Assembly: GCA_050084985.1 (NCBI GenBank)
Contig: JBITNC010000001.1
Location: forward strand, 183,706,001-183,770,000
Source of the DNA: Nageia nagi
Taxonomy: Eukaryota > Plantae > Pinophyta
Reading direction: 5' to 3'
DNA: 64,000 nucleotides
Part shown: piece after piece, positions 6,245-50,528 of the stretch
How the letters are laid out: each line of letters starts with the position of its first letter
How positions within the stretch are numbered: position 1 is the first letter of the stretch
Made by a program: the position numbers and the translations under genes
The notes under the pieces: model-generated
The model's input: the letters and a program-made list of their open reading frames with translations, nothing else
Told to the model about the DNA's origin: nothing
Databases searched by the model: none

Positions 6245-9200
6245 TTTCAAATGAAAAGACTTTATATTATTAAAATACAAAGCTAGTCATATAAAAGGGG
6301 TCAAGTGGTAGAGAACACATCCCAAAAGAGTCACACTAACTACACTAGGGTTAGAAAGCATAAAACTAATACCAAACCAAAAGTAGCCATAGCTAATCGG
6401 AGACCAAAAACACCATACGAGTGAAGCACAATTGAAAAAAGAAAATTAACTATTCAGGAGGATGGGGGGTGAAGTTGTCAGTTGACCCTAAGTAGGCCCA
6501 ACCATCATTATTAGAGGGAGCATCATTCCAACCATCATGGCTCACCTCAAGAGAAGTGCCATCCAGTTCAAGTGTCACAGCAACAGGCATAGGAGGTTGA
6601 GGGTAAGGCCTACCAATCAATTATGGCAGACCCCCCTAGCTACTTTGAGGGTGAGGAGATCCATGGCCCTAGCTAACCACTGGAAGAGATTCCCTTGGAT
6701 GTACATCTTAGCTGGAATGAACACACAAGGGTGAGGGTGCATCTAAGCAGAACCACTTGGGATTCTATGGTAGTTGAGACTAGTGACATCTGGGCAAAGA
6801 GGAAGGATGGTCTTGCAAGGAACCATATTTGGAAGCCCATCATCATGAACCTAGAGAACATCGATGCTACAGCTGCTGTTGAGGATGATGTCGATTAGGG
6901 GGAACTCTGCTCATGGCACAAGGGGCATTGTCCCAAAAGTTTAGCATATGATGTAAGGTTTAAACTTCCATATTTATCTTCTCTACTTGCACAATAATCT
7001 ACAACCAAGCATCGTAAAAAATAGCATATTTATCAGCAAGAGAAAAGGAAGTAGAGACATCCTCCCTACCAAAAATAATTCTATTTCTAGCTTTACAAAG
7101 ATGAAATAGGATAGTGGTAAGAAAAATGTGCCAAACTTCCTATAGGGATTCTGAAAATTTAAGCGGGTCTCCTAAAATTGCATGAACCCAAGAACATGGA
7201 GTAACCAAGAATTGGTTAAAAAAAGATAGAATCTAGTCCCAAGCTTCCTTGGCTTTCAAATAGGACCAAAACACATGCAAAAAGTCTTCAGGGGAGTTAC
7301 AAAATGCACAAGTCAGGTTGAGCACTCCTAGATAACTTCTTCAAACCCTAATAGGCAAGCTTTGATGCAATAAACTCCAAAAACAATTGTACTTAGGTTC
7401 CAAATAGGACTTCCAAATTATGCAAAAACATAGTCACCACCAAGATGGTGAGGAGGCAAGATCCCATTGTAAATTGAGAATATCTACCATAGGAACATAA
7501 TAAGAAATTTAGGAGTGCCCAAGGTGGGGTTTGTACTTCATTAACTTGACTTTTTTGGCCAAGCCCAATCCTTCCACCAAAGAGATTGGAACCTTTCCTA
7601 GCCCAACCCAAATAGAAAAGGGGACTTTTTCCATAATGTAATCAAATGTGGACTTGTCACTAAGGGAGAGGCCATACTTGCTCCAAAATTTATCCCAAGA
7701 GAACCAACTCTTGGTTTAACAATCAAAAAGATCACGAAACAAGTCAATCCCTTTTCTGTGAAAATGAAGAGCATGAATCCATTGAACTTGGGTGAGAGGG
7801 AGGCTTTCATGTGTGATAGCTAGAGACCATCACAGGCTCAAGGAAGAGCATGAAGCTCCAAAACCTTTCCCAAATCTTTTCCATTTAAGCCAAGGTTTCA
7901 AGGCCTCCCAGGCTTTCCATATACTCTTGACCACAAAGGAACCAATAATTTTTATGGGCATTGATGCTGTCAGAAGCATTTGAAGGTTCAAACCTTTCCA
8001 AACCTTTTTACCAAAAGGAAGGCTAATGGATATGTAATGCCTAATTAGAATCTTTTAGGACTCCTTGCCCTCTAGAGCACAAAGGATCCACTTAGCACAA
8101 AGTGTAAACCCTTGGTGGTTGTAGTTAAAAAGTCCCATACCACCATCCAATCTAGGAAGGTAGTAGATGCTCCAAGCAACTCTATGAAACCCTCTCTTTT
8201 GCTCGTCAGAGGCCCAAATAAAATCCCACAATAGACAATCAAGCTTGTAGTAACAATTCTTAGAGGGAACCCAATAAGTAGAGTAGTAAACATGTGTCAA
8301 AGCTAGAATTTTATAACACACTTGAAACTTCCCAATAAGGGAAAGTTTCTTAGTGGACCAATACTCTAACTTTTTACCAACCTTTTGAACAACTACATCC
8401 CAGAGTTGAGTAGGGGAAGCCTGAAAGGCAAAGGGAATGCTAAGAAATTTAAACACCTCACCATGTTGAATCCATTTCTTGAGATAATTAGCAAGCCAGA
8501 TAGGGGTATCCTTGGGGGATTGATGATAACAAGAAGTTTTTTGCCATTGAATACTGGAACTTGAAGCTAAATAGAAGGTGTTCACACACTAAAGAGCAAC
8601 AGTGATAGATTGCTCATCTTCATGCAAGGTAAGGAATGAGTCATCAACAAAATGCCCATTGAGAAGCTGATTCTGAGAATTCAAAAGAGAAATGCCCCTA
8701 ATATTACCTAGGCCTGCATGATGCACCAGTAGGTAACTAAAGCCTTTAGCAACAAGAATAAACAAGGAAGGAGCTAAGGGGCAACCTTGAAAGATAGAAT
8801 AGGCAAGAGTGATGGCTTGGGAATGAGATCCATTCAAAGTAAGAATGGCTAAGGCATCCCTAAAAAGCATCTAAATAGACTACAAAAAATTGAACCAAAG
8901 CCCAAAGTTATCAACATGGCAAGAATGAAATTCCATTCAATTCTATCATAAGCCTTTTGAAAGTCAATCTTGATAAAGAGAGCATCTTAACTAGATTGAT
9001 GAGTCCATTCCATACCTTCCCAAATAGCAATGACATTATCAAGAATGTAACAACCCTTGATAAAACCTATTTGTTCAAGCTGAATGATGAGAGGCAAAAT
9101 TGGCTTGAGCTTGAGAGCTAAAGCTTTAGCAAGAATTTTGTGACAAACATTTAGCAGGGTAACAGGCCACCAATTGGTGATTAATTTAGAATCTCCCAAC

Positions 9201-9966
9201 TTGGGGAAAAGCTTGATATTGCCTTTATTAATAATTTCTCCAAGAGAACCCAAAAGCATAGCTTCTTGATAGACATGCAAGAGATTAGGTCCCACCATGT
9301 CCCAAAACATTTTATAAAACTAGCAGGGGAAACCATCAATGCCAAGAGCTTTGTCATTGGCCATCTCTGCCAAGGTAGACTTCAAATCTTCAAGGGTGAG
9401 GGGGGACTCACAAATGTCCTTTTGAGCTTGAGAAAGCCTCAAAGGTATGACAAAAGAGCATTCTTCCAGAGCCTACTGGCGAGCATCAGATATAGGCTGA
9501 GGTAAACACATTCTAATAATGCAGAACAAAAGATTGCAAAATGTTTGGGAAATGGGTCAACCTCTCATTATTCACTTTCAAGGCCTGGAATTGAGTGGAG
9601 TACAAAGGAGGTTGTAGCTGCTTATATAATTCTTTTGAGACTCTATCACCTACTTTCAACTATTTAAGTCTTGCCTTGAGCTGAGCCCCCTTAGCTTCAT
9701 AAAGGTTAGCCTTCCTTATCTCATTGTGAAGGGAAGCTACTTGGGCTTAAGTAGGTGGACTAAAAGGATGAGCCTCCAAAAATTTGAAAACACGGGCAAG
9801 CTCAGACCATATCATAGAATTGGATTTCTACCTTATTTTTGCAAACTCAACTCCTCAAGATCTAAGGACTTTGGAAGTTTGGTGAATGACACCATTCCAC
9901 TAATGAATCCAACCACTCGGGCCAAAAGGGCATGGAATAAGATTCTAATGTCAAAGAATATGAGCA
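6245..9966 (-). mobile_element. L1-type LINE, 3' half (post-endonuclease linker, RT, zf-RVT, short poly(A)); degenerate
   Basis: GAQLKARLK*LKVGDRVSKE (~9640-9700); ORF fragments 8987-9310 (NWWPVTLLNVCHKILAK...QIGFIKG), 8589-8870 (QGCPLAP, FVDD) and 8055-8585 (GGMGL); T-tract at 6240-6247; TSD copy TTCTAATTGATATTTTT at 6228-6244. Confidence 0.9.
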
Positions 9967-10189
9967 AGTTAGATTGGATCTCTTTGGTTCAGCTAGTGCG
10001 AGGATGGTGCAACCAGCAAGTAGAAAGGAAAGATAGTTGCCCATAGTATGTTTTGTAGAAACTACAGGGAATCTTAGAAGACAGTTTTTGAAATATGTGT
10101 AATACTGTAGAATATCTATAAACTTTTATATATACAGGTTTTGGGGCCCTATTTTTTTGAAAACTCGCTGCAAATTTTTTAACCTTATC

Positions 10190-10192
<3 letters not shown>

Positions 10193-10271
<79 letters not shown>

Positions 10272-10299
10272 GTATGTATGTATGTGTGTATGTGTGTGT
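10193..10299. repeat. Compound (TA)n/(TATG)n/(TG)n microsatellite
   Basis: Directly visible; the (TA)n part is much shorter in copy B (~44241). Confidence 0.95.
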
Positions 10300-10759
10300 C
10301 CACATGCATGCATGCACCCATGCACAAGTATTAAGAAGAAAAATATTTAAAAGAGATGTATATCTTAATTTAATCAAAAAAATAATTTACCTTTTTAATT
10401 TACCTCTTTCTTTGGTTGGTAAAATTTAATTGCAATGGAGATGTCATGAACTTAATTCAGGACTCTTATTGTCTTTTATGAAAACACTCTCCAATTGTTG
10501 GAAACTTAGAATATATCAAAGGAGACAATGAGAACTAATACTTAGCATGACAATGGTTCATATGCATAAGAGATTTAAAAGTAACTACTTATAGCTAGGA
10601 TTGTCCATACCACCATAGAATAGCAACTTATAACATATTTTACAATGGTTAAATTTCCTCAATTCAAAATATCGAAATGTATTTAGATGTTATAATGGAT
10701 GAGTTTCAAATTTTTTATGACAATTTTGTGCTCAATCAAGGTCCCAAACCTTTGTTACA

Positions 10760-13310
10760 CTATTAGTATTTTATTTATGATGTAACCATATACGATGAGA
10801 TTGGGCAACTATGGGATTCCACCCAATGCATAAAGTGAAATTGAAGCTACTTCATCTTCCATTTTTTTATGTTCCTATTCTTCCATTTCTTCAACATGTT
10901 CTTGTTGATCTTATTTCTCTTAATATTCATATTTTGAAGCATGTATGTCTCTTGTTCCATTTTTAGTCAAATTTGAATCAAAAGGACTTTGAATACGTTT
11001 TCATTAGCTTCACTCCTTTTCCTTCAAACAAAATTATTGTTTCCTTCTTGTTTTCCTATTGAGATCCTTAAATACATTTCCTTAAGGTTTATAGTAAATT
11101 AAGGTTTCCAATTATTGCAAACCTAGTAGTTATATATGCTTATATTATATTCATATAATACTTTTTTGTGAAAAGACTTATGCTTTAATATAATGGCAGA
11201 TACCTTTCCATGGCAAGTTTTCTCCATTAACAAGGAGTATGATGGAACTCTTATTAACTACATTAAGAAATTCAACCTTGCCAAATAATTATTGATAAAA
11301 TTATATAGATGTTATCATTATAAGGACTACTAGTATTTTATTTTTGATATAACCACATATCATGAGATTGTGCAACTATCAGATTCCACCCCATATACAA
11401 AGCGAAATTGAAGCTACTTCCTCCATTTTTTATGTTCTTATTCTTCCATTTATTCAACATGTTCCTAATGATTTTAACCCTGACAATATTCATATACTGG
11501 CGCATTTTTATCCCTTATTTCATTTTCCATCACGTTTGAAACAAAATGACTTTGACTACTTTTTAATTAGCGTCACACCTTGTCAATCAAACAAAACTAT
11601 TGCTTTCTTCTTGTTTGCTCATCATAATTCCTAATGCATTTCCTTAATTATCATAGCAAATTAGGTTTCCAACCATTACAAACCCAATAATACATTTTCT
11701 CCTACTAGATCCATATAATACATTTTTGTGTAAAGACTGATGCTTTAACATCATGATACATACCTTTCCATGACAAACTTTCTCCACTAGTAATGAGCAT
11801 GTTGAAACTCTTATCAACTACATAAAAAAATTTCAACCTAGATAAAGAATTATTGATAAAGTTGTATGTGCTACTCTTTTTTTTATTAGAACCAACGAGT
11901 AAATTTGATATTAATCAAAAAGAAAATCGAGTTTTGAAAGGACCTCAAAAACTAGTGTGTGCTAATATTATAAAGACTACTAGAATTTTATTTTTGATGT
12001 AACCACAGACCATGAGATTGTACAACTATGAGATTCCACCCATTGTATTACTATGATATATAGGTAAATATTTGTCGAGTATAGATAGGAGATTGTTAAA
12101 ACCTCCTAACAAGTTGGACAATTTATTGACTCAAACCACTCGTACTCTACTACACAATAAATATTGTTGAGATACTAAAAAATAATATATCAAACAATTA
12201 TATCTTTGACATTGCATTGAACGTTCAAGCTCTTCATTTCGCCTTTGCATTTCAACAAGGATCATCCTTATTCTTTATAAGGATTCAACCACCATGGCTT
12301 GCATCTTTAATGTTGAATTTAGAACTTCTGCTGACATAGCTTTCTCTCCTTTCAATAGTTCGAGAGTGTGTTATTGCTAGAGACCTTTGGGTATGACCCA
12401 ACCGCGATCGTCGTTGTCTCATTCACTAAGCTTTGGATATGGCATGAAACTTCTCCTCTATGAATGACATCCTCCTCACTCTCACCAATATTCATAGGCT
12501 CACTTCCATAACTTGCTTCCATAATTGCTTTTCAAGGAGCTTATCAAGGGGAGGGGTAAATATAAGGGTTTAGATAAATAGTGGAATTGCTTCTATTGGG
12601 TCGATAGCGGATTCCCATTGCTACCTGAGCAATAAAGGATTAGGGATTTGTGTTGCTCGATTGATAGTGGATTCCCATTGCCAAATTCATTGTTACCTAA
12701 TCGATAACAAATTCTTGCTACGAGGTTCATTATTGTTGGATCAACAGTAGATTCCTGTTGCATGGTTTGTTGTTATTGAATTGATAACATATGCTCCTCA
12801 TTTGAATATTTTTATTAAATATGTTTATTAAATTTATTTTTTTATAATGTTTTGTGAAATACTAATATAGGTAAAATCAACATTTAACATCATTCAAATA
12901 CTTATGGACAAAATTTTATAGATCTTACAAACCAATGGGTTTAAAATGGTATTAAAAGACTCCTATCTACTTATTCTATCAAACATTCAAATACTTAATT
13001 GTTTTATATTTACTTCTAGACAAACTTTATAGATCCTACAAACCAATGGGTTTAAATGGACATCAAAAGACTCCTATCCTATAAATGAAATTGAAAATAC
13101 TTTATCTTCCATTTTTTATGTCCTTATTCTTCCACTTCAACATGTTTATGTTGATCTTGTCTCAAAATTCATATATTGACGCATTTATATCCCTTGTTCC
13201 ATTTTTGTCACACTTGAAACAAAAGGACTTCGATTACTTTTTCATTAACTTTACTCCTTGTCCTTCAAACAAAATTATATTTCCTTGTTTACCTATCGAG
13301 ATGCTTTGAA
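10760..13310. repeat. Three degenerate ~570-bp tandem units, the third interrupted by a ~1-kb insertion (also present in copy B, ~44750-47300)
   Basis: Unit starts cta.tag.attttattt.tgat.taacca at ~10760, ~11327 and ~11977. The third unit breaks at ~12046 and resumes at ~13083 (aaatgaaattgaa...). Confidence 0.75.
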
Positions 13311-15789
13311 GGGTATTATTTATATTAATGTAAGATTTCCTTTCATTGTTTTTGCTATGGTGAGTGCTTCCACTTTTTTTTAATAGTAAATATTTTTTAC
13401 CAAAGTCTTATGTTTAAGCATATTCTCCACTTTCTAATATTCTCTTTCAACCCTTGAAGAAAATAATTGAGTGTCTCCCTTCAAATGCAATGCATATTAT
13501 TGATCAACTAAATAAGTTGAGATGCAAAATCTTCAACCAAATCTATATTGGGCTGAATAGTCATACAACATACACTCCATCATCAATAAGATTATACCAT
13601 CGTGATTGCCAAGGACACACTTCCTAGACGTGGAACATGGAAGAGTACAAAATTTTATCGAATTTACCCTAACCATCCTTTTGAATCATTCTAATTTAAG
13701 TTTCTTACATTCAAATTAAGCAATTTACTATTGCAAGGCCATTGTGAACAAAATTCATTATTGTTTTTTGAATTCAATTTGTAAAAAGACTCATACCTTT
13801 CTTTATATTATCAACACTATTGTTTCAAATATTTTTCTTGTTAGCTAATTGATTCTTTCTTCTTTGGATACATTATATTTGATATTTGTGTTTTGTTAAT
13901 TGTTTGTAACATTATATTCTATGTCCTTAGTGTTTGGTATGGATTGATCAAAGTTTTCTAAGTTGCTTATGGCAAATAAGATTTGTAACGTTGTGGAATT
14001 TTATTTTTACCAAATATCAATTGCTCTTTTGAAACTCATTAATGGATAATAGTTGATCTTGCCTAATATGGCTCCTTAAAATCATCCTTTTTTTCACGGT
14101 CTTAAATATGGGTCAATCAAAGGTGTTAATAAGTATACATGGTATTGTGATTACATCAACAAAATGAATTCACTAGAGTAGTTGTCCCGAAGGGGTGGAT
14201 CTCAATTTGAAGGCCCAAAGTATAAGAATTTTATGGCTGTTGTCAGATATGCATGTCATCATGATCACCTGGATGAGAAATGAATCAAATGATATATCTC
14301 TTGATGAGAGATTAATTGAATGATATATTCAACCCCAAAATTTTGTTTTTCCTTGTCATTGATATGATAAAGTTCAACAATAAGAAAAACAATTCCAAAA
14401 AAAGTTGGAAAAATTAGCACATAAAGATTAAGGTTTGATGTCTATTATTCTCAAATCATGGTAATGCTCCAAAATTGTTCTTAAAAACATGTAATTGAGA
14501 CAATTACTCTAATACCATTTGTTGTAGTTTAGATAATACAAATAATAAAAAGCATGTGTAGTCCACTCAAAATAATAACAATAACCAATAATCAACCAAT
14601 TAACATTAAAATATCATCCATGATTGCCATATCCAAAATAGTTGAATAATAAATATTCACAATTAATAATAATAAAGAGATTCTTGAGAGTGTTTGCTAC
14701 TTCAAAGGGACAATCTCCCAAGTATTCAAAAATGAAAAATTCTCCAATGATGATTATGAAACTTACTTGTAATTCTATTCGTAATTTTATTCAAGTGCAA
14801 GTGTAGCTAATGCACTAATCCTTATGCTCTATAAATAACATCCACATGATATAGAGCAAATAAAATAACAAAAATGTGATTATACATAACAAAGAGACAA
14901 TGATCTATTGAGAAACGAATGCAAGAGAACTCCTGAGTTTGGATCTCTTGAAAAACAAGTGGGAACATTAAAGTTAAGCTCCTTATAGAAAATGCTCAAC
15001 ACATCCTTGAGAGATGTTTGAATAAACCAATTAGTCACTTGTTTCATATTTTTTGTGATATTATATTCAAGTAATGCTACATTGTGGAATAACATTCTTT
15101 AAAAATTACCTCTAAACAAAATTGTGGGTAAAGGTCTTGTATTTCGTCAACAAAGCATGGGAGTACCATCAGCATGAATATGTTTATTGAGGATCTCAAG
15201 CACCAACAAAGGCTCCATCCTAGATTTAATGGGGAATGCTCTTGATAAGTGAATTACTGTTTTCATTGCTCATCTTTTTTTTTATGTTGTTTACTATATA
15301 ATATATAAAGTTGTTTGCTCGGAGTTGGAGAAGTAACGAGAATGCTTCATGAGAGCCTTAAGTTCAAATTTCCTTACCCTTGCATGGTCTAACAAATAGA
15401 AATCCTATAGATGCATGTGTGTGATCGAAGCCAAATCTATGGAAGGTGACAAACTCTACTTGTGAATCCCTAACCAGCTTTTGAATCAACCAATTTTGTA
15501 CAAACAACTCAGCCTTATTAGTTGATTTGTAGGTGCATATCCTAATATTGATCTGGTCCACCAAAGGCTGCAAATGAAATGGCCTACCAAAGGAAATGCT
15601 GAAGTTGTAACCATGCAAACCATTTCATGATGTTCAATTTCGCCAATGCAAAAGATCGAGATATGGTATTAAGCATAGGACAATTGTTCTTTGGGAAAAG
15701 AGGATTATTCTTACATGGTAGAACAACTAGAAATCTTAAGTGACTTTGAAGGAATAAATAACCCTTGATGCTGCACCTATCACAAAAGG

Positions 15790-15792
<3 letters not shown>

Positions 15793-15838
<46 letters not shown>
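15793..15838. repeat. (TA)n microsatellite (paralog at 49767-49806)
   Basis: Directly visible. Confidence 0.95.
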
Positions 15839-15842
<4 letters not shown>

Positions 15843-16559
15843 AATAGAGTTATCTGTAATGCTCTGGTTGAAAATACTATACACTTTTTTTGTTTAATAT
15901 GTTTGCCTGTAGTCTGTTTCATTTTCACTCAAATGGAAAAAGCCCATGTGGACTTTGATTGGGTTGTATTTGAGCTGCACTTAGTCCACAAGATTACCGA
16001 TGTTAATTTGAACTGAAATATTATGAATCATTTTTTACTCTTTTTAAAAAGATGAAAACATAAAATCAGATTATGAAAATCATAAGCTCCCATAGCATCT
16101 GCATGGTTCATGGTTTATCATAATATGTGTACCTAATTGATTGTTTTCAGCTCTTTGCATTCACCATTTAAACTTTTTATGTCCTTCAGTGGATGGCATA
16201 TGATTATAAAATGCATTCATAATGAGAAAAAAAAGCACCCAGATCTATATCATAACAGTATACAGTAGTCAGGACTGACATTAAAATAAAACACCAACTC
16301 CTTGCCCATAAGCATTTTCATAGAGAATCCTTGCCATATTAGGTATGCTTAATATTAACATCAAAGTTCAGAACTAATTTTAAACTAGCCAATTTAGGAC
16401 AAGCCATTCTAAGGAAATTTGTAAACTGATAGATTATTCCACGACAAACCTTAAGGTAAACCTCGTTACTGATGACAGCTGAGCTACATGGACTAAACAT
16501 TTATATTGTTCCGGCTCGTATGCCACTGGTAGTATTTTGCTGAAACAAATTAGAACAAT

Positions 16560-19500
16560 TTATTCATTTGGTGGAGCAAACTTGATTGAAATACTGTTGA
16601 CACAGTGCCTTTCATCTGTTGGTGTTGAAAATCCCTCTCCTTTGAACACATGTCCCAAGTGGCCACCACAAGCAGCACAGGTTATTTCAATATAACGTCC
16701 ATCTGGATCAGGCTATCATAGTTTCACAGTAATCATCATAAAATGCAAGAAATGAACTCTCTCACGCTCTCTCCCTCTCACACACACATGCACGTATACA
16801 CACACAATATATATATGCAAAAGTTAACATTTGGAGATCATGGAGATATCTAGAATCATGGTGGCTAGAGATAATACATACAGTGCGATTGATAGCTCCA
16901 GGAAGACCTTCATAGAATGCTGGCCAGCCACAACCGGAATCGAATTTGGTTGTAGATTTGTATAATGGTGTGCCACAACCGGCACATTTGTATATTCCAT
17001 CTTCATAATATTTGTTGTACTCTCCAGTTCCTGGTAACCTAGATTAAAGATACAAGAGCGACTTCTTTATTATATTCCACTTTCATGCATGTGTATATTA
17101 CCTAGAACAATTAAATATCCTTTATGCAATGAAAAAATCCCTGATCATTTTCAGTAAGCACTTCAATAAGTGTTTCGTAACCTGACAAATTCTGACGCTT
17201 TCTAATTCATCTTGCTTTAAGAGATGTGTTTTCACAAATAAACTATTGCATATAATAAATTTTTAAAGTTTGTAAAGACTGATTGCTTTGCTTAATTTAA
17301 GTATTTGGTGATATTTAAAGGAAATTTGATCCTTGATCAAAAACCTAGTTGTGTGCTGCTCCGTTTGGTACATTGTAACTTATTGATTGTAAATATGACA
17401 CTTCATTGGATAAGTGGAATATAAATACCAACTTGATGTTCTCTTCTGGCAAGAAGAGAGGGATTAGCCTCCCAACAAAAAGTCTGATCCTGTAGTATTG
17501 CCCTATGAATGTGCTAAAACCGTGCACTTGACATATAATGTAAGTATTTTGAAATCCATTCTGCTTGGGAGTTGGGAGAATGAAAACCATGTGATAGGTA
17601 ATAATGAAACATAACAGAAGAGAAATGGGATAGTTACATCATGAAGCAAACTATTATATAATTTAGAAACCTAAATTCCCTAATCTATAGTACTTTTTCC
17701 CCTAAGTCATCAGCTGAAAAATGAGCTACAGGATATTAGCATTCTGTTACGTAATACCTGAGTGTTATAAGGATATTAAATAACCCTTTGACACTAACAG
17801 TTAGATTTTAGAACAAACACACACAAAGGCACAAGGCTTTAAGAACTTAGCTAACCATTACACCAATATATTTTGGACAAATCATGCTTTATGCATTTCA
17901 GAGCAGCTGTTAAGATCTTAATATTATAAGTAGACATATTAACTTAACCACAAAAGTGCTGCTGATTTTAAACAGAAGCTGCTAGCAGTTTTTCAATTTA
18001 TTTTTACTACAGCAATGGTCCTCCAACGATTGAATAAACAATTTAAGAATTTGTTGACACTTATTTAGCATGCACCAAGAGCTTAAGGATTTGCATTCTT
18101 CATATAGTCCTATTTCTTCAGGCAATTATGCATGTAGTCAAAAGTACATCCTAAAGGAAAGAAGCTTTTCAAGCTGCTATGCATATCTCAATCCTTCTCT
18201 ATTTTGAGATGGTATATACACATGTTGCTGATATTTTTGAAACATGTTATATGCACACCCTTGACATTAGGTGAAAGAGCATTTTCGATTTCCTTTTCCT
18301 GTTCAGAGAAGTTTACTTGGAACCGCAACTAGATCAACAGCATGCCACATGAAAACTTCACAGGAAAAACACATTACAAAGCATGCAATATTTACTTTTT
18401 CATATTGACTGGAACAAGATCAACAACCATTTCATGTGTCTCACAATGTGTATTCATTAAGAAGAAATGCCAAGATTTACAACAGTTTAGGGGGGAATGG
18501 AAAATTAACATGACATTGTATTTTTCAAATCAGAGATCCCTACAGTTTGGATAGATCTCTAATGCAGTCGAGCAAGAAGTAGACCCCCTTTGTTTCTGAT
18601 ATAAATCTACTGAAATTGGATCTGTTTGGTGACCTTAAATCAATAACAAAAAAGTTGTTTTTAATGCAAGAGACAATGTCACTCTAGATACACCTTGTAA
18701 AGATTAAGAAAATAAAGCTTTAGTTTCAATACCACATTGGAAAAAGGACATTTACAGAATGCAAAGGGAAACAGCAAGAAGATTCTGAGCAGACTGAGAA
18801 ATATCCTAAGTTCTCATGGAAAATTGATATATTATGGTTGAAAGGTTGCATATACTTAGCTCCGATTCCTAAGATCAAGCTGCAAGTCTTGAAAAAGAAC
18901 CATGATTTGCAGCTTCAAGGCATGCTAGCTTCATTTACACCTAACAACATCCAACTATCGTTCTTTTCAAAAGGAATGCCAAAAAGACACACAGATTTAT
19001 GTCAAAAAAATGTGATGTTGTCCATGACTCCATAGACACGACAGCAAAACTATCCCTTTGATGCTGTGAAGATTGAATGTTCTACAACAACACAGAAAGA
19101 TGTTAAATGGACTCACTGATGGTTGTCTTATCTCTGATCTTAATGACTGTATACTGTTTCAGTTGATCATTTCACCAAGTATGCTTCTTTTAGGATATGC
19201 AGAAGACTAGTTCAATTCCCCGACTGGTAAAGGCCTATACTGATAATGTCTATAAGCCACATGAATTTCCAAATGTGATTAACTGAAATCTATTTTCACA
19301 ATTAGCTTCTAGATGTTAGCTTAATAGCTAATATATAGTTTGTGATTGTAATAAGCATATGTCTAATGTTGACTATGCCAATAATTAAGGTTTAGATTAG
19401 CTTGGAATGCTAAATAATAGGAGTGCTAGACTTTGTATAGCATGTTACAAGTTTAAGAGATTCTTTAACTTATTTTGTTCAACCATAATATTCTATTGTA

Positions 19501-22500
19501 AGGCTGTCTTGAGCCTATATATTACTTGTTTCCAATCAATACAAATCAGTTCATTATAGGAATTCTATATGGTATCAGAGCCACGTTGATCCATTGCTGG
19601 GATTAACAAACCTGTACAATAGTTTTTTGAGAGGAGTCTTGTGGAGAAAGTAATAGGAATTGCTTCTCTGCTGAGAAAGACTGAGAGGGAGATTAGTGTT
19701 AAGGTGATCACCTGCCTTGCGTTGCATTCCCCTGCTGGATTGAGATCTCTTCACACACGCTTCGTCCCTGGGATTTGCATGTTGCTTCATTGAGGACGTG
19801 GAGACTGTCAGAAAAGAATTGCTTCTCTGTCATAACGTGGAGGCTGAAGATACAAAATTTTTTTTTTTTTTTTTTTGCAGCATAGCGAAGTGTTAGTTGC
19901 TGCATTCAATCCAATTCACATCTCCTCCTAACTGCTGCTGTTGTTGTGCGAAGACGAGTTGCTGCTGCTGCCATTAGACGTTGCTGAGGAGCTCACAACG
20001 TGAATTAAATCAGTTAGTTCTGCTGCTGAAGAGAACGTGACCTGCTGTTTGAGGCGACTGCTGAAGGCATCTGTTGTGTTTGAGGAGAAAGTTTCGTGTG
20101 CAGAGGGGAGGCTTGCAACGTGAATGAATCCGCCTAGATCTACTGTTGTTTGAAAAAATGACTGCTGTTGTGTAAAGGGGGTCGTGCTGTTTAGATCTAA
20201 TTGTATGTGCTGCCAAAGAGCATTTCATGGACGTGTAGAGGAGGAGAGCCACCCAACAACGAGCTGCAGGAGGAGAGCCACCTGACACCGCGTAAAGAAA
20301 AAGCACAGAACCTGCCAAACCTGCCAACCAACGGAGGGCCCGCGCTTGGAAGTTGCTCGCCATAATGTGCTGCTGTTGCATGACATGGAGACTCTCAAAT
20401 TTACAATACCAGTGTTGGATACGAATTTGATGTACTGCTTGGACTGTTACTGCAGTGAAAGGAGATCACAGCTGCTGCAACTAGACATGTTGCTGTTATT
20501 TGCCACTAAATTGATCAGATTGGACATGATATTGCTATGAAAGGACGTGGAGATTGTTAATATATGTGTTGCATGATGTGTATGCTTTGAAGAAGTGTTA
20601 GTTTGCTGCTGATTACTGCTTTTTGCTACTGCTGTTGTTTATTGCTACTATTTGATCCAGCTGGTCATGTTGTAGTGGCTCTAAAAGGAGGTGGAAGATA
20701 ATACCTATCTTGCATTACGTGGAGATAACCACCCATGAGTTGAAGACCATCAACCACATAGACATCACACTCTGCTAGTAAGGAGGAGATAGTGTGCAAG
20801 TGTGCTGAACCGTATTCGTGTTCATAGGCAGCAAAGGAATAGAAAGAGCTTGTGTTCTCAAATCACGACATGATAAGAGCTAATGGGTGTTTCGCGGCAT
20901 TAAAATATCTTGTAGACAACGCATCTCCAGAATTGTTTGACGAGGAAGTTCAAGTGTATGGTATTGATACAGCTTTTGAGACTGTCAAACAATACGTAAT
21001 CCAGTGCCAAACTGTCAACGAAGGTTACGAGGGAGACACAGAAGAAGAAGATTCATTTGATAGTGGTTATACTCCAAACGACACTGAGGATCCAAACTAC
21101 GTTCCCGAGGAACCTGTCAGCATTGCACAATCTGAATCTGTGGAAGTGTTTGTTCCAGCACCAGTGGAACCTGAGTTGATCATTATCAGTGATAGTGACG
21201 ACTATACTCCTGCTCCTCAACCACCGGAAACTATCATTGTTAGAGATAGTGACGAGGAGATTCCGAACGCAGCTGTTAGAGAAGCTCAATCCTCTGAAGG
21301 TGATAACTTTGGTTATAGTGTACCTTGGGAGATATAGTGCATGATTTGCCTATAAAATCTATCTATTGTTTATTTTAGCATCATCAATTGCTATAAATAA
21401 AATTTTATTTTAACTCAATGACTAGTGTTAATAATTCTTTGCCCATTCCGGAGTTTAATGGTACAAAATATGAGTATTGGTCAATTCGGATGAAGACATT
21501 GCTCATTGGAAAGGGACTATGGAGTATTGTAGACACGGGTTACACTGAGCCTGCTGATTGGTCTATCTTGAATGAAGCTGCAAGAAAAGCAAAAGAAGAG
21601 GATCAGAGAAAGGACTCGTTAGCCTTATCTCATATTCAATCAGCCTTGGCAGATAACTTATTTCCTAGGATTGCTTCATGTACAACTGCTCTTCAAGCAT
21701 GGAAAGCTTTAAAGGATGCTTATCAAGGTAACACACAAGTAAAACAAGTGAGACTTCAGACATTCAAAAGGGAATTTGAAAATCTGAGAATGAAGGAGGA
21801 TGAGGCAGTTGGTGACTATTGTGTTCGAGTCAAAGCAATTATTGACCAAATGGAAACCCTTGGTGAGGAAGTGAAGCCAGAAGTTGTTGTGAAGAAAGTG
21901 TTGAGAACACTTCCTCGAAAATGGAACCATATTGCAATCATCATTGAGGAGTCGAAAGATCTTTCTACCCTCACCTTTGATGCACTAATCGGTTCCTTGA
22001 CATCTCATGAGGAACGACTGGAAGATCCTTCACCCTTTGGGGGTGAGGATAAAGCTTTTTCAACCCAAGGACGAGGTCAAGGCAGAGGTAAGAAACGAGG
22101 CAGAGGAGGTAGATCCCATGGAGGTGGTCAATCTCGAGGGGGAGGATCCCAAGCACCTGGCCGAGGAGCAGGTGGTAATCACAGTGGTAACCGAGGAGGA
22201 CAATCATCTAGAGGAAGAGGAGGTGACAAATCTAACAAAGAATGTCATTATTGTCACAAACTTGGTCACTATGCTCGAGAATGCCGACTGAAAGCATCCA
22301 ATGAAGGGAAATCCAATGCAAATTATGGAGAAGAGGAAGCAACCTCATCTTCAAATTTGTTTCTCACCTATGACCAATCACATCAAAATCTCAACACAAC
22401 TTGGATTTTGGATACGGGTTGCTCAAATCATATGACTGGGAAGAAGGAACTATTTTCCAAGGTAGATTCCTCTTATAAGTCACACATCAGATTGGGAGAT

Positions 22501-25500
22501 GACAAAGAGCTTCAAGTTGCAGGCATGGGCGCCATGGAGGTACCAACCAAGGAAGGCATCAAAAAGGTACATGACATCTATTACACTCCACATCTCAAGC
22601 ATAATTTGCTTAGTGTAGGACAAATGATAGAAAAAAATTATAAACTTGTTTTTGAAGATGGCGCTTGTGTCATTACTGATAAAAATAATGGTAATAGAGT
22701 TGTTACTACTGTATCTATGACCAAGAATAGATTATTTCCTTTGAAATTTGGGGACCATAATAATGCCCAACTGGCTAATGTAACCATTGAGAATCCAAGT
22801 GTACTTTGGCACTTGCGATATGGTCATCTCAACTTTGATAGTTTGAAGTTGTTAACTTCACAAAATATGGTTTGTGGACTACCAAAAGTTCAAGCTCCGA
22901 AGGAGGAGGTATGCGAAGGATGTGCTTTAGGAAAGCATGCACGTACAAAGTTTCCAAAAGATGAAGCATGGCGAGCCAGTTATCCATTACAGTTGGTCCA
23001 TTCAGACATTTGTGGGCCAATGCAAACCAAAAGTTGGGGTAATCATCGGTACTTTCTTACATTTATTGATGATTTCACCAGACTATGTTGGGTCTATTTT
23101 TTGCAGACTAAGGATCAAGCATTTGCATGTTTTCAAGATTTCAAGAATGATTCAGAAAAACAAAGTGGTTTTCTTGTTAAATGCCTAAGAACTGATAATG
23201 GAGGAGAATTTTGCTCGAAGGAATTTCTACAATTTTGTAAGGATGTTGGGATAAAAAGGCAATATACCGCTTCTTACACTCCTCAACAAAATGGTGTGGC
23301 TGAAAGGAAAAATCGCACCATTGTTGAAATGACCAGATCTATGCTACAGTCAAAAAGGCTCAGTAATATGTATTGGGCTGAAGCTGTCAGAACCAGTGTG
23401 TACATTCTGAATCGGTGTCCTACTTCCAGCTTAGATGGCATCACTCCCTATGAAGGATGGTATGGCAAGAAACCAAATGTCAAACACTTTCGTGTTTTTG
23501 GTTGTCTTGCATATGCACATATTCCAGATGAGAAAAGACAAAAACTTGATCCCAAAAGTCAAGCTTGCATTTTCCTTGGATACTGTGAGTCTAACAAAGC
23601 CTATAGACTCTATAATCCCCACACAAATAAGGTTGTGATTTCTCGAGATGTGATTTTCGATGAAGGGGGAGTCTGGGGTCATCAAAAGTTGTATACTGAT
23701 GATGGATCTCATCATGAAAATACATCTCAAGTTCAGCCATCTGGAAAGACCAATCTTGAAAATACAGGGCCAGTCGAGAATTCTAGTCCTATCTCAGGTG
23801 CTAAGAGAAAGAGACTTGAGAAGAATCATCCATCATCTCAAATGTTGGATACGAATTTTCAAAGAAGGTACACTAGAAGCCAAGCTAGTGAAATGCATGA
23901 TGTCTTGGAAAGACTTGAAAATATCCACCTATTTGGAGACGATGATTCTCAAGAGCCTAAGGGTGATGTGGTGCATTATGCCCTTATGTCTAATGTCGAG
24001 CTTGAGCCCTCTAGCTTTGAACAGGCATGTGAGTCTGATATATGGCAGGAAGCTATGCAGGTAGAAATCAACTCCATCAACAAGAATGACACATGGGAGC
24101 TAGTTGAGCTTCCTCAAGGCAAGAAATGTGTTGGTTGCAAATGGGTCTATAAGACTAAACTCAAACCTGATGGAAGCATTGATAAACACAAAGCAAGGTT
24201 AGTAGCAAAAGGTTTTACTCAAAAGTATGGATTTGACTATGAGGAAACATTTGCTCCTGTCGCTCGACAAGAGACCATCAGATTAGCACTCTCATTGGCT
24301 GCTCATAAAGGATGGAACATCCAGCATATGGATGTTAAGAGTGCATTTCTGAATGGATATTTGAATGAGGAGGTTTATGTGAACCAACCTCAAGGATTTG
24401 TAGAACAAGGTAAGGAGAACCTTGTCTACAAGTTGAAGAAGTCATTATATGGTTTGAAACAGGCTCCGAGGGCATGGTACTCTCGCATTGATGGCTACTT
24501 CACTAAATATGGTTTCACTAGGAGCAAAAGTGAACCTACACTCTACTACATGAACAAAGGTAACGATATCCTAATTGTGTGTTTGTATGTGGATGATCTT
24601 ATATTCATGGGTAGTAGTAACAAACTGAATAAGGATTTTCAGAATTCTATGATGCAAGAATTCGAGATGACAGATCTAGGCTTGATGCATTATTTCCTAG
24701 GCATGGAAATACATCAAAAGGAGAATGAGATCTTCATTTGTCAACTTAAGTATGCTCAGGAGATACTCAAAAAGTTTGCTATGGAGAAGTGCACACCAGT
24801 TGCAACTCCGATCGGACATGGGATTCAGTTATGCAAAGAAGATGGAGCATCAAAAGTTGATAAGACAAATTACAGAAGTATAGTTGGAAGTCTAATGTTT
24901 CTCACCAATACAAGGCCAGATATTCAGTATGCAGTTTCCCTAGTTTCAAGGTATATGGCTGATCCATCAGAACTTCATCTACAAGCAGCTAAGAGAATCT
25001 TGAGGTATGTAAAAGGTACAGTGGATTATGGGATTCACTACTACAAAACAGATGTTGCAAAGTTGGTTGGTTTCAGTGACAGTGATTGGGGAAGTAACAT
25101 TGATGATAGAAAGTCTACTTCAGGAAATTGTTTCAGTCTTGGGTCAGGGCTTATTTCTTGGTGTTCAAAGAAGCAGACAGTTGTAGCTCTATCATCTACT
25201 GAGGCTGAGTACATAGCAGTGATACATGCTAGTACCCAAGTCTTATGGCTACGAAAGATACTTGAAGAGATTGGTGAAAAACAGAATGATCCTACCATAC
25301 TATACAGTGACAACATGAGTGCCATTCAGTTGGCATACAATCCTATTCACCATAAAAGATCAAAGCACTTTGACATGAAATATCACTTCATTCGAGACAT
25401 GGTGGATAAGAAAGTTGTTGAGCTAAAGCATTGCAGTACTCTGGACAACATTGCAGATATCTTCACTAAAGGCATTGCCAAAGCTCAATTTTTAAAGTTG

Positions 25501-27065
25501 AGAGATTGCTTGGTCAGCCCTCTCATCTTTAAGGGGGAGAATGTTAGCTTAATAGCTAATATATAGTTTGTGATTGTAATAAGCATATGTCTAATGTTGA
25601 CTATGCCAATAATTAAGGTTTAGATTAGCTTGGAATGCTAAATAATAGGAGTGCTAGACTTTGTATAGCATGTTACAAGTTTAAGAGATTCTTTAACTTA
25701 TTTTGTTCAACCATAATATTCTATTGTAAGGCTGTCTTGAGCCTATATATTACTTGTTTCCAATCAATACAAATCAGTTCATTATAGGAATTCTATACTA
25801 GAAGGATTATGTTCATATGTCTGCTATCTCCAATTACAGATTCCTCACACTATCCTCCAACAGAAGGTCAATCAGTGATTGTAAATATATATTTGGTGGG
25901 ATTTTTTATGGTATTTTTCCTCCAATAAGCAAAACTAGTCGCTGAAAGGCTGGAATCTAGTTGAATGGTGGTATTGCCACATATCCTGCAAAATGACTTC
26001 AATTGATTTCTTCGAAAGGATGAAGATCAAATATTATTTGGGTGCTACAATCAAAGTGTGAATGGGAAAAGAACTTTTTGGCCCTCGCAATTTTAAAAAT
26101 TGTTTTTGGCCTGACTGTAATGCTTTTACCGGTGTATCTAGTCATGAAAGATCATTTTTGGATAATTTTAGTTAAAATTTTCAACAAAACCAAAGACAGG
26201 TACTCATGATCAGGAATCAGGAATTTTATGTAATTGTGCAAGCTACAAGCTTTATGTTCTAGACCATTGGAGACTTTATCTTTCGCACAAGGTAATAATA
26301 TTTTTGATTGAACGCTAAGTTCTCGAGTATACTAAATAGTGTATAATTGCACTCCCGAGGGAAGGTCTATTTCCATCTACAGTAATTCAACGGGAACCAA
26401 TAAATCGATCATCCAGCAAACTCAACCCCGAATGAATAATCCATGGTTACAAATTTTTGGTGGAAATTTCAGCCAGGGATCCAGAAACCATTCTTGAGAG
26501 ATGGAGTAGAAAAACTAACCCTTTGCCTTTCCTCCTCGTAAGCCACACACCCAGAACCCGCAAGTGATACTAACAAACGCAAAACTTTAAATTCCCTATG
26601 CAATTGATAGTTTTCTTCCTCACTATTGCCCAAATTCCCAAAAAGGGGCCTACAAAGGAAATCCCAAAACTAGAGATTGTAATGAAAACAGGAAAGACAG
26701 AGATATTGTAAATAAACTTACTCGGTGCCTTTCTGTCTGAGTATGCGAAACTGCTCTGCTGAGAGAACAGCCTGCCACTCCTCCTCTGATTTTTGCACCG
26801 CCATTGGCTTCTGTTGGGATTGTGAACAGGCAAATGCCACACCAATTCTTCTGCTCTTGAACAGTAAGGGCAAAGAGTGTTTGATTGAAACTGTGGTGAA
26901 CTTGGGATGTAATTTATAACAAGAATTTGTTGGAATGGCGACGGCTGACTTGAGATCGGTGTTGTGGGTAAATGAGATTTTGCTCGCAAGAAGAGGGAGA
27001 GCCGGATTGGATCCAGGGGTCAGAGTTGCCAAATGTAAGGTTGCTCGAGAAAAGGGTGCTGCCAT
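16560..27065 (-). CDS. MSRB: Peptide methionine-R-sulfoxide reductase B, 2-Cys, probable plastid transit peptide (copy A). Exons 27065-26722, 17038-16882, 16712-16560; 217 aa
   Basis: Spliced product MAAPFSR...[128 protein letters not shown]. Both introns are GT-AG with consistent phases. Two CxxC motifs, GCGWP resolving Cys and RHCVNS catalytic Cys. The ORF-track start at 27077 is GTG; the first ATG is at 27065. Confidence 0.95.
19314..19569 (+). repeat. 5' LTR of the copia element
   Basis: TGTTAGC...TTCTATA; no mismatch found by eye against 25542-25797. Confidence 0.97.
19570..19583 (+). promoter_or_regulatory. Primer-binding site (tRNA-iMet)
   Basis: TGGTATCAGAGCCA directly abutting the 5' LTR. 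Confidence 0.95.
20870..21337 (+). CDS. Extra ORF upstream of gag: 155-aa acidic protein of unknown function with two SIM-like repeats
   Basis: Open frame 20843-21337, first ATG at 20870. Very D/E-rich. An 18-aa tandem repeat (21152-21259) is conserved at protein level with synonymous codon changes. Confidence 0.65.
   Translation: MIRANGCFAALKYLVDNASPELFDEEVQVYGIDTAFETVKQYVIQCQTVNEGYEGDTEEEDSFDSGYTPNDTEDPNYVPEEPVSIAQSESVEVFVPAPVEPELIIISDSDDYTPAPQPPETIIVRDSDEEIPNAAVREAQSSEGDNFGYSVPWEI
21418..25566 (+). CDS. Copia Gag-Pol polyprotein (Gag, RGG tract, CCHC knuckle, protease, integrase, RT, RNase H), 1382 aa
   Basis: [14 protein letters not shown]; [11 protein letters not shown]; WHLRYGH..CEGC; [21 protein letters not shown]; [12 protein letters not shown]; YVDD; SDSDW/TEAEY/ADIFTK. 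Domain order IN-RT-RH. Confidence 0.98.
25531..25541 (+). promoter_or_regulatory. Polypurine tract
   Basis: AAGGGGGAGAA immediately before the 3' LTR. Confidence 0.93.
25542..25797 (+). repeat. 3' LTR of the copia element
   Basis: Matches the 5' LTR; followed by TSD CTAGA. Confidence 0.97.
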
Positions 27066-27546
27066 GTTTATCCCCACTAGTTCATGTAGAATTATTTGTT
27101 CACGTAGAATCCAATGACTGATAACTTGGGTGAAATTTTATTTATTTTCTTTTATAAAATTTAAGTAAGAAATAGTGGTGTGTATTATGTGAAAATTGGT
27201 GAAATATGAATTGACGGATAAAGGAGTTGGAGAGGTGGGTGGTTAAAAGCTCCTGGATACGGCAAGTTCAGGTTCAAAACTCTTCACCTTTAAAAGTTGA
27301 AACATACCTAAAATCCTATTGAGTTGATGGTAGGTGCAAATGAAGTTGGGATCGTGCCTCGGGTGGCTTTTGACAGCGTAAATGCCCCTCAATCGTGGCT
27401 CTAAGCTTAAAAGTTTTTGGTACCCAGTATCAGAGGACAAAATTCCAACAATAAAAAAAAAAATTAATGAAGTAACAAATCAGATTATATAAAAACTGTA
27501 ATGAAATGTATACGAAAGCTCAAAAGTTATAGAGATGATATTTATC

Positions 27547-28457
27547 TTTTTTTTTAATGAAAAGTTAAATTATATTAATAAAGTGATTTCATATAAAAAG
27601 GGTGGTGGACTTAACACACTCAAAATGGTATATCAACTAAAAAGATGGGTTAAATAAAAAATATCAAAACATTACATAATCTTGTAACATGGTCTTCAAA
27701 CATAAATGTCAAAAAGGGACTTTATTCATAACTGATAGAAATCACTCTCCATGATTGTGATCTAGAGGGCAAGATGAAAATTCTCCATATTGGGATCATA
27801 ATGCCACCCACTCAAAGAGTATGTGGGGACATTCCAACCATCATCATTAGACATTCATATCCTCACCATGGTGAATGTCTGGAGTTATCACAATAGCAAT
27901 CCTGGTATCACCCAATCCAATTATTAGTAGAGAAGCTTTTAGGTGTATGTCTCGACCAAAAGTATGGTAAGAGGGGCTCCCTCCATGAGCAAAGGCACAC
28001 TTGCAAGCTGGTGAAGGCTATGACCAGTGCTTTATTTCATGCAAAACCCCAAGCCATGGTTGCAAGCTCCATTGGGAGCGAGAACATGACCATTGGCAAT
28101 CGCAAGGTGGCGAGCTAGGAGGAACCCAATTAATAGTGCAAAATGCATTACCCAAGTGGTCCATGAGGTTCTTAAGGTGTTGAAACTTCACATTAACTTT
28201 TTCAACTTAAACAATGATTTACAACCAACAATCATAGAAAATATAGTACTTATTAGCAAGGGAAAAAGAGAGAGAAGTATCTTATTGATTAAACATTTCC
28301 CTATTATGAGTTTTCCAAATATGAAACAAAGTAGTAATGCAAAAAATATTCTAAATAATATGAAGATTATCTAAAAACTCAATGGGATCACCCATAATTG
28401 CACACGATCAGGAGAAGGGGTTGAGCATAAAGGGTATAAAAAATGAAAGCAACAAAT
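27547..28457 (-). mobile_element. 3' end of a second, older LINE upstream of MSRB-A
   Basis: T-tract followed by aatgaaaag..tatatta, resembling the LINE end at 6241; shared cattccaaccatcat motif. Confidence 0.6.
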
Positions 28458-28688
28458 TGTTGGAAATTGTAATGTAATATTGTGTAATATTTCTTTTTAA
28501 TATAAATTTATTTAATGTTTAAAGTATCTTTAGATACATTAAAGCATTAAAAGAATAAATATGGAAAGAAAAATAAATATAAAATACCTTTAACCTTACC
28601 TTTGGGTAAAAAGAAGGTTAAAGGGTGGGTTTCTTCTTATAAATAGAGAGGTACCCTTCTCATTATGTAATTGGATGAAGCATAGTAA
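28458..28688 (+). mobile_element. Truncated 5' LTR (first ~231 bp) of the element at 56091-59981
   Basis: About 90% match to 56091-56322; cut at the duplication breakpoint. Confidence 0.85.
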
Positions 28689-30540
28689 GGACAAAACTAA
28701 CCAACACCACAAGGTGGACCTTTCATGAGCATTATTGGAGGCATAAACATTCACGATACGGAAGGGCTTCTCAAACATTTTGAAAAGGACCCAAATGACC
28801 TAGTTGGACGGGTCCACTCCCCAAGAAATAATATTAAACTACCAATTGGGGGAAACAAAAATAATGGCACCGCTAGAACTAACCACATGATTCAAGTGAA
28901 AGAAGGGGCCACCTACCTGCAAAAGGAATTTAGAAACTTTAACTTCCTGAAAATAAATAAAATCTAATTTTCCAAACATGAGATTGACATCATCAATCTT
29001 TGTATGGATTGTATACTTTTGGGATGGGTCCGTTAATCCCCTCACATTCCAAGAAAGGTAATTCATTGGGAAATGTCAAGTTTTGAAGCTACCACAACAT
29101 TATCCTAGATATCCATATGCTATAGCATAGCAAAAGCATTTCCATCATGTCCACCATCCACCTGGTGATGTTTTTCCATAGGAGCATCCCTTCCACCTCG
29201 GAGAGGACTCCAAGATCATTGAGCATGAGAAGTTAAAGAATCCTCCCGTAGACAAGCAAAAGGTGGAGTAGAGATAACCATAGTTAAAGAAGGACCAGAC
29301 CATACAGGGTTCTCGGGCTCTTGAGCATTAGAAATGTGAACATCAAAATCTATGGGACTTAGAGAAATGGAAGGCATAGAAGAGGTAGTAGGCATAGAGG
29401 AAGTTTGAGGCCTAGCTTGAACATTGTTAATTGGGGCTCGGGCCTAAGGCATAAGAACATGGACTTGAGGCATCCCTACAGAGCCTTGAGGGGCATGGTT
29501 CTTATTTCAATGAGAAGAAATAGTAGTCCAAGCTTGATCCCTTGAAACTGGGGTTGAGGTAGCAGGTACAGGATTAGCTTACAAGGGGGTAGTAGCAGTG
29601 GTTTGGGCTTTAAACCTTCCTTCCATAAGGGGGCACTCTTGAATTTTATGGTGAGGGGATTGGAAGCAAAAGCAAGTATCAAGGAGACCAATGTAATTAA
29701 CCTTCTGATGAACAAACTCATCATCAATGACCAAGTCAATTTCATCAAGATGATATTTCGTGAGGTCTAGCCTCACACACACCCGCCTAACCGATCGAGC
29801 CAAAAAGAACTGCTCAGGTTCATAACACACAAATGTGTTAATTTACTTAGCACAAGGTTTCAAAAAAGTTCAAAGGGTATGGGGGAGATTAGGAAATTTA
29901 ATCCAAATAGGAAATTCCATAGAGGAGCTTTGTGACACATCAAAAGAACCAGAGTATGGTTGCAAAACTAGCAAAGAGTTTTGGATCATCCAAGGTCCTT
30001 TGGACAAGATTTTCTTGACATGCATGGGGTTAGAAAACTAAAACAAGAAATACCCTTTGGTCAGGTTTTGCACATTCTCAACCTTAAACCCATAAGGGCC
30101 CCAAACTTGAGAAACCCATTGACACAAAATACTCACTAGGAATTCTACCAAGAAAATAACCAACCAAATTGTGCAATTCAAACCATGCACAGGACTCCTT
30201 AAAGTCATGCAGGGGAATATAAACTCAAGGGACATGAGAATTACCTTATGTTATACCTTCGATAAGAGTTTTCATGGCTTCTTCTTAGGCATCATCTTGC
30301 ATGTGAGCCGCTTCACTAGAAAGTGAATCGACAGAATGAGACTCAACCATTCTTAAACACACCAAAGCCCACTGCTAGAGGCAAAAAAAGGAGGCTAATC
30401 AATATGAGTAGAAATCCCACAAAGGCTATCAAGCATGGTGGTCTGACCAAAGCAAGGACAATGAATGTAGGGTAGCTCGACATGGCAACTTAGGGTTTCT
30501 AGGAGGACTTTCCAGGGGTGTCCTTCATTTTCATGCAATG
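28689..30540 (-). mobile_element. L1-type LINE, 5' half (5'UTR, ORF1 with zinc knuckle, N-terminal part of the endonuclease); same element as 6245-9966
   Basis: ORF1 ATG at 30483, fragments with RVCVRLDL and CFCFQSPHHKIQECP; ORF2 start MNYLSWNVRGL at 29066, FQEVK, IVNVYASN; second TSD copy TTCTAATTGATATTTTT at 30541-30557. Confidence 0.88.
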
Positions 30541-44060: not shown

Positions 44061-44245
44061 CCAATAAGTAGAAAGGAAAGGTAGTTGCCCGTAGTATGTT
44101 TTGTAGAAACTAAAGGGAATCTTAGAAGACAGTTTTTGAAATATGTGTAATACTGTAGAATATCTATAAACTTTTATATATACAGGTTTTGGGGCCCTAT
44201 TTTTTTGAAAACTCGTTGCAAATTTTTTAACCTTATCCAAATATA

Positions 44246-44276
<31 letters not shown>

Positions 44277-49764: not shown

Positions 49765-49809
<45 letters not shown>

Positions 49810-50528
49810 AATAGAGTTATCCGTAATGCTCTGGTTGAAAATACTATACCCTTTTTTTTGTTTAATATGTTTGGCTGTAGTCTGTTTCATTTTCACTCAA
49901 ATGGAAAAAGCCCATGTGGACTTTGATTGGGTTCTATTTGAGCTGCACTTAGTCCACAAGATTACCGATGTTATTTTGAACTGAAATATTATGAATCATT
50001 TTTTACTCTTTTTAAAAAAGATGAAAACATAAAATCAGATTATGAAAATCATAAGCTCCCATAGCATCTGCATGGTTCATGGTTTATCATAATATGTGTA
50101 CCTAATTGATTGTTTTCAGCTCTTTGCATTCACCATTTAAACTTTTTATGTCCTTCAGTGGATGGCATATGATTATAAAATGCATTCATAATGAGAAAAA
50201 AAAGCACCCAGATCTATATCATAACAGTATACAGTAGTCAGGACTGACATTAAAATAAAACACCAACTCCTTGCCCATAAGCATTTTCATAGAGAATCCT
50301 TGCCATATTAGGTATGCTTAATATTAACATCAAAGTTCAGAACTAATTTTAAACTAGCCAATTTAGGACAAGCCATTCTAAGGAAATTTGTAAACTGATA
50401 GATTATTCCACGACAAACCTTAAGGTAAACCTCGTTACTGATGACAGCTGAGCTACATGGACTAAACATTTATATTGTTCCGGCTCGTATGCCACTGGTA
50501 GTATTTTGCTGAAACAAATTAGAACAAT

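Follow-up and report, generated by a model that had tools for sequence, protein, structure and literature searches.

A young plant copia retrotransposon carries a selected 5′ extra ORF with tandem SUMO-interacting-like motifs

Is a small open reading frame (ORF) between a retrotransposon's primer-binding site (PBS) and its gag a gene, and if so, what might its product do? Copia elements have largely been treated as gag-pol only, and, according to the part of PMC7264820 consulted, what extra ORFs do in plant LTR retrotransposons is unknown. The 64,000-nt stretch of DNA analysed here (the window) contains one complete, very young Ty1/copia element at 19314-25797 that raises this question. A preliminary description of the window had reported an intact 155-aa sense ORF between PBS and gag, flanked by identical LTRs, and had read it as a candidate anti-silencing or chromatin factor with SUMO-interacting motifs (SIMs). 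The ORF coordinates and the identity of the LTRs were confirmed (Table 1).

Table 1 Features of the copia element and its extra ORF, in window coordinates
Feature	Position	Strand	Remarks
Left target-site duplication CTAGA	19309..19313	+	The empty site 53434-53438 has one CTAGA
5′ LTR, 256 nt, TG...TA	19314..19569	+	0 mismatches to the 3′ LTR
PBS TGGTATCAGAGCC	19570..19582	+	
Long non-coding leader ahead of the extra ORF	19583..20869	+	18 ATGs, 8 same-strand ACGTG cores
Extra ORF, 155 aa	20870..21337	+	Purifying selection, no known family
Conserved N-terminal region	20870..21025	+	Two helices (4-17, 25-49) predicted by a low-confidence model
Acidic tract, Y-[ED]-x-D...F pattern	21026..21115	+	D56 and F63 unchanged across all 7 sequences of the alignment
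SIM-like motif 1, residues 102-111	21173..21202	+	
SIM-like motif 2, residues 120-130	21227..21259	+	
AT-rich spacer, 80 nt	21338..21417	+	By sequence likeness, acceptor-like TTTTAG (21378) and two TATAAA boxes (21351, 21392)
gag-pol, intact single frame, 1382 aa, GAG-PR-INT-RT(-RH)	21418..25566	+	
Polypurine tract AAGGGGGAGAA	25531..25541	+	
3′ LTR, 256 nt	25542..25797	+	
Right target-site duplication CTAGA	25798..25802	+	

The element has LTRs, a PBS, a polypurine tract and a 5-nt target-site duplication, and the Pfam domains of gag-pol (gag, protease-type, integrase, RVT_2) follow the copia order, with integrase before reverse transcriptase (RT) (rve 523-622, RVT_2 890-1132). Domain order, PBS, 5-nt duplication and the single gag-pol ORF are common to plant Ty1/copia elements with a tRNA-Met PBS, and we take the PBS here to be of the tRNA-iMet type; unlike those elements, this one has a leader of about 1.85 kb from PBS to gag and an extra gene. 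The RT is 42-65% identical to 34 copia proteins (angiosperm and unnamed), and from familiar motifs we assume an Ivana/Oryco-like lineage, Gymco groups being also possible. A second copy of the locus at about 10250-28700, 97-99.7% identical, lies at about 44240-56320 and lacks the element; it could be either a tandem paralogue or another haplotype. Since this near-identical copy keeps the empty site at 53434-53438, the insertion must be very recent. The element lies antisense to a host gene, inside its first intron; the gene, presumably plant MsrB-like by its motifs, is found at 16600-27065 (-) and 50570-54700 (-), and exon 1 of the second copy shifts frame near 54400. Both LTRs end in TA instead of the usual CA and have a CpG count of 0, and the gag-pol frame enters the 3′ LTR by about 25 nt.

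The stop-to-stop frame of the extra ORF opens at 20843, and the gag-pol ATG follows 80 nt after its end. Order-1 Markov simulation of the 1835-nt leader yielded an ATG ORF of at least 155 aa in 1 of 2000 runs (chance about 0.0005), and no second copy of the ORF was found in the 64,000-nt window. The encoded protein has a net charge of -31, with five Lys+Arg. The AlphaFold2 model is of low confidence (mean pLDDT 53.6, pTM 0.20), with the two helices as its secondary structure and none past residue 49.

Seven relatives of the protein were identified, at 29-93% identity. A word-index search returned three proteins among 29 candidates (66-82% identity), and HMMER analysis of 1.84 billion representatives gave seven matches at E ≤ 0.001, all unnamed singletons, consisting of two of the three word-index proteins, P0044, P0045, P0046, P0047 and P0048. 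The last of these, a repeat-rich 1395-aa protein matched solely via a short motif, was dropped. P0044, P0045 and P0047 are distant relatives (29-42% identity), represented here by their protein sequences, while P0046 is a 41-aa piece that was excluded from the alignment, leaving seven sequences (the query and six relatives). P0002 and P0046, from contigs of the same size, cover the ORF between them, and P0002 probably continues P0046 as one broken copy; P0003 stops after the first SIM-like motif. Pairwise identity over the N-terminal 52 columns is 27-78%, and a Met-x-x-x-x-Gly-Cys motif stands at or next to the start in six of the seven relatives, P0002 being without that part. The window copy stops four residues before P0001 and P0002 (155 versus 159 aa in frame, 21320-21340), and contigs of three sequencing runs depart from it at 21333.

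A repeat search using the alignment brought no further family members, and no locus encoding the ORF was present in the metagenome, viral or prokaryote contigs scanned. Pfam gave no family at E ≤ 10, and neither Pfam, PDB sequences nor the ESM Atlas (whole protein; residues 1-66) gave a usable match. Foldseek (PDB, viral) also gave none, which means little because the model is of low confidence. No host protein matched among the 1.84 billion representatives; a clear match to a captured host-gene fragment or a described copia domain was what the preliminary description had named as contrary evidence.

Selection on the ORF was assayed with public DNA data: in four runs, drawn from three studies, 166, 645, 845 and 481 contigs matched the ORF at ≥80% identity. 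No indel was listed in the ORF at the 40% threshold across the four runs, and the 40 common differences (of 45 rows, scored against a single reference copy with neighbouring changes taken singly) comprised 21 synonymous and 19 amino-acid-changing differences and 0 stops. The expected synonymous number was 10.1 by mutation type (P = 5e-5), or 13.0 with CG/CHG methylation context (P = 0.0017, rough omega-like ratio 0.44); without CpG rows, 11 of 27 were synonymous versus 5.6 expected (P = 0.009). Lack of stop-creating differences was not significant by itself (P = 0.14). Neither of the remaining sense frames had a synonymous excess (13 versus 14.2 expected; 5 versus 11.0 expected), and the antisense frame did show one, as expected because third positions are shared. 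For gag-pol, to which 27 of 40 rows in a separate listing belong, the ratio was 0.29; these omega-like figures are rough, because they rest on one reference copy, on sites that are not independent and on contigs filtered by identity. Summed contig depth over ORF versus leader was 115-250 versus 3-4 in run X1 and 746-1962 versus 43-81 in run X6, at most a hint of higher ORF depth, because this measure cannot rank the parts. The preliminary description had proposed selection on the protein from codon differences between two repeats, and the 21 of 40 synonymous differences (P about 0.002) agree with this. We consider the ORF very probably to encode a real, selected protein, and the data support a selected, family-wide, element-borne gene without a known family.

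The two repeats lie 54 nt apart, and the codons quoted for them were right: the 18 aligned codons comprise 5 identical, 5 synonymous and 8 amino-acid-changing pairs. The Ala of the repeat-1 'PAP' is Glu in P0001-P0003, and the 'PAP' likeness between repeats is therefore peculiar to the lineage of the window copy. The cores of the SIM-like motifs, LIII and TIIV, are four residues long with at least three V/I/L, and are flanked by SDSDD and DSDEE in a region predicted to be disordered (low-confidence model). The pattern is present in the query and five of the six aligned relatives, two of them at about 30% identity, in keeping with the SIM-like motifs first described: two copies are seen in the query and in P0001, P0002 and P0047, one copy in each of P0003 and P0044, and none in P0045. 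None of the 40 difference rows alters an amino acid in either hydrophobic core or Ser/acidic tail. Background frequency was 0.12 per 155 aa in gag-pol proteins and 0.07-0.35 per protein in shuffles; the per-protein shuffle values of 0.011-0.16 (P0045 being without a match) are optimistic because the pattern was written after the motif had been seen. The second motif also resembles an off-frame stretch of gag over 9 residues (E about 1.5), which was taken as chance.

One example of a phospho-SIM is the C-terminal IIVLSDSD of DAXX, with which the preliminary description had compared the motifs. This string is absent from the portion of the review PMC6735914 searched, which does report an affinity gain of about 30-fold upon CK2 phosphorylation beside the DAXX SIM. 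The published definition, a four-residue core with at least three V/I/L, is called a loose motif by its own authors in the part of PMC12751080 covered. The extra ORF resembles phospho-SIM proteins (DAXX SIM2; HSV-1 ICP0, EBV BGLF4, KSHV K-bZIP and LANA) in having a hydrophobic core and then Ser with acidic residues, as these are described in the covered parts of PMC12751080 and PMC6735914; it differs from them in that the likeness is one of motif, with no homology and no ligase or kinase domain. Complex prediction with residues 90-135 and a stand-in giant-virus SUMO gave a score of 0.06 and a mark of 0.34, values taken neither for nor against binding. The stand-in is a 90-aa SUMO-like protein (Rad60-SLD, E = 4.6e-20) encoded at L001:200-472, on a giant-virus-type IMG/VR contig; it is close to SUMO2/3 entries, and its gene may be viral or host contamination.

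The distribution of the ORF was analysed in the best 80 of at least 318 related gag loci from a metagenome scan (34-46% identity), 63 of which carry at least 700 nt upstream. The ORF profile matched in 0 of these 80 (best E 1.2), and among the 41 with a recognisable PBS the leader was 25-268 nt in 40 and 1036 nt in one. The 80 loci do not amount to 80 independent lineages, because many appear to come from few related samples. Absence of the ORF from these loci and their short leaders indicate that the extra ORF is an addition in one lineage. The locus with the long leader (L042:2880-3920) contains a 66-aa repetitive ORF unrelated to the family, and a scan of viral contigs for related gag found none.

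The leader of the window element contains CTG-rich short repeats in addition to its ATGs. Same-strand ACGTG cores number 8 versus 0.9 expected (0 of 3000 simulations), and 9 of the 27 ACGTG matches of the window fall in this leader; several of the cores occur as ACGTGGAG or ACGTGAA. ACGTG is the G-box/ABRE core bound by bZIP factors, and the cluster is possibly a G-box/ABRE enhancer cluster within the element. Observed/expected CpG and CHG are 0.49/1.51 in the leader, 0.71/1.37 in the ORF and 0.25/0.85 in pol. Leaky scanning via an AUG-free leader does not agree with the 18 ATGs, and translation of the ORF would therefore need splicing, an internal promoter or shunting. Donor-like sites are found, by sequence likeness, near 19650 and 19703. 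In run X5, guessed to be RNA, a contig covers 20865-21156 and no joint was listed in the leader; this run was left out of the evidence.

Our best reading of the protein is a lineage-specific accessory adaptor in which a predicted helical hairpin is followed by a tail that is acidic and probably disordered and that links it to tandem phospho-SIM-like motifs (coordinates in Table 1). The predicted hairpin would dock on a partner, providing a second contact or oligomerisation. The serines of SDSD and DSD may be phosphorylated by a CK2-type kinase, and the two phospho-SIM-like motifs would then bind SUMO-tagged host nuclear proteins. The conserved tandem cores and CK2-type serines would be best explained by binding of SUMO or poly-SUMO. 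Judged from its sequence, the chance that the protein binds SUMO is about even, and that it serves as a SUMO-binding adaptor encoded by an element-borne accessory gene slightly below even; the lack of an evident basic nuclear localisation signal was counted against the adaptor. Such an adaptor may target the complex in which the element itself replicates or integrates, and would guide this complex to chromatin marked by SUMO or protect it from that chromatin. Action on this complex is favoured; a diffusible, general inhibitor of silencing would help every element alike, and a single family would find it harder to keep. A role in anti-silencing is the least supported of the proposals, and we consider it unlikely; the SIM of the Arabidopsis silencing factor MOM1 is dispensable for silencing, according to the part of PMC6084981 covered.

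The selection evidence fits equally well a real accessory protein whose acidic motifs bind a partner other than SUMO, such as H2A-H2B (by way of the acidic-aromatic tract) or, in the manner of an acidic chaperone, the basic Gag nucleocapsid or integrase of the element itself. Several histone chaperones bind H2A-H2B through acidic-aromatic motifs, and the net charge, the invariant D56 and F63 within the acidic tract and the long Arg-Gly tract of Gag are all consistent with such a partner. However, a purely electrostatic role leaves unexplained why a branched-chain hydrophobic core immediately before S/D-S-D/E is kept at about 30% identity, and why that core is duplicated in tandem, and we regard a non-SUMO partner as possible but rather unlikely. 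That no functional protein is made, the frame being a decaying captured host-gene fragment, a regulatory upstream ORF or open by chance or RNA-level constraint, would suit the 18 upstream ATGs, the broken or short state of some relatives and an omega-like ratio that is no more than moderate. We judge this quite unlikely, given a synonymous excess confined to the ORF frame among the sense frames, an amino-acid pattern and start position kept at about 30% identity, the lack of a host match among the 1.84 billion representatives and the low probability of an ORF of this length.

A VANC-like, sequence-specific anti-silencing factor acting on leader motifs such as the ACGTG cluster appears highly unlikely: five basic residues and a net charge of -31 speak against direct DNA binding, Pfam and PDB gave no match to any known protein, and a bZIP-bound G-box/ABRE core is a simpler account of the cluster. 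In its favour are the 8 same-strand cores together with the short repeats, the greater retention of CpG/CHG in leader and ORF than in pol, and the nature of VANC targets, which are motif repeats in non-coding regions in the covered part of PMC10398659. The same part describes VANC21 as binding short DNA motifs in its own element. The analogy with VANC of VANDAL (Mutator-like) elements, drawn in the preliminary description, is weak. It extends to a lineage-specific accessory gene and a motif-rich non-coding region in the same element, but hardly to the protein: VANC21 is a DNA-transposon protein that binds DNA motifs (PMC10398659, as far as covered), whereas the window protein is small and acidic, with no evident DNA-binding part. 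Pfam and PDB searches found no homology to the VANC family.

Among retrotransposons, the closest counterparts are the eORF-5′F found in gypsy elements (Tekay, TatII, Ogre) and in certain copia elements of the Bianca and Ikeros lineages, which are likewise sense and upstream of gag; those were counted at ≥250 codons in the survey part covered (Neumann 2019, PMC6317226), whereas the window ORF has 155 codons and no Pfam match. The survey part gives 5′ sense ORFs for 33% of Tekay, 23% of TatII, 21% of Ogre, 5% of Bianca and 4% of Ikeros elements, and the statement that 5′ extra ORFs typify Ogre was therefore too narrow. It lists no extra ORFs of at least 250 codons for Ivana, Ale, Tork or Gymco I-IV, and would miss a 155-codon ORF because of this cut-off. 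Ogre 5′ ORFs often bear a plant mobile domain (PMC6317226); an Ogre-type ORF was ruled out here by copia order and by the absence of PF10536 or any other Pfam family at E ≤ 10. A SIRE env-like ORF, which would sit between pol and the 3′ LTR, was ruled out as well, since pol extends into that LTR and the extra ORF lies on the 5′ side. No SIM-bearing 5′ ORF in plant copia was found in the titles and abstract openings searched, outside which most subscription papers lie, and the word 'SUMO' has 0 occurrences in the parts of bioRxiv 10.1101/2024.04.02.587720 and PMC13547354 searched.

5′ sense extra ORFs are already known as a kind; the case added here is a copia element whose accessory gene is under selection and has not been described before. 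It suggests that a class of accessory genes escapes surveys whose cut-off is 250 codons. If true, SUMO handling by a copia accessory protein would be an undescribed way of dealing with host chromatin. A whole plant copia lineage may encode a dedicated tandem-phospho-SIM accessory protein that engages host SUMO and thereby protects the element or guides it. This would be a retrotransposon's equivalent of viral SIM effectors, overlooked by surveys because it is so small; we put forward this broader proposal tentatively, at well under an even chance. The small ORF, the intact and recently moved element and the two short, mutable motifs make a direct test of SUMO use possible. Elsewhere in the window, at 8058-10043, open frames contain decayed reverse-transcriptase fragments, which we take from familiar motifs to be LINE-like.
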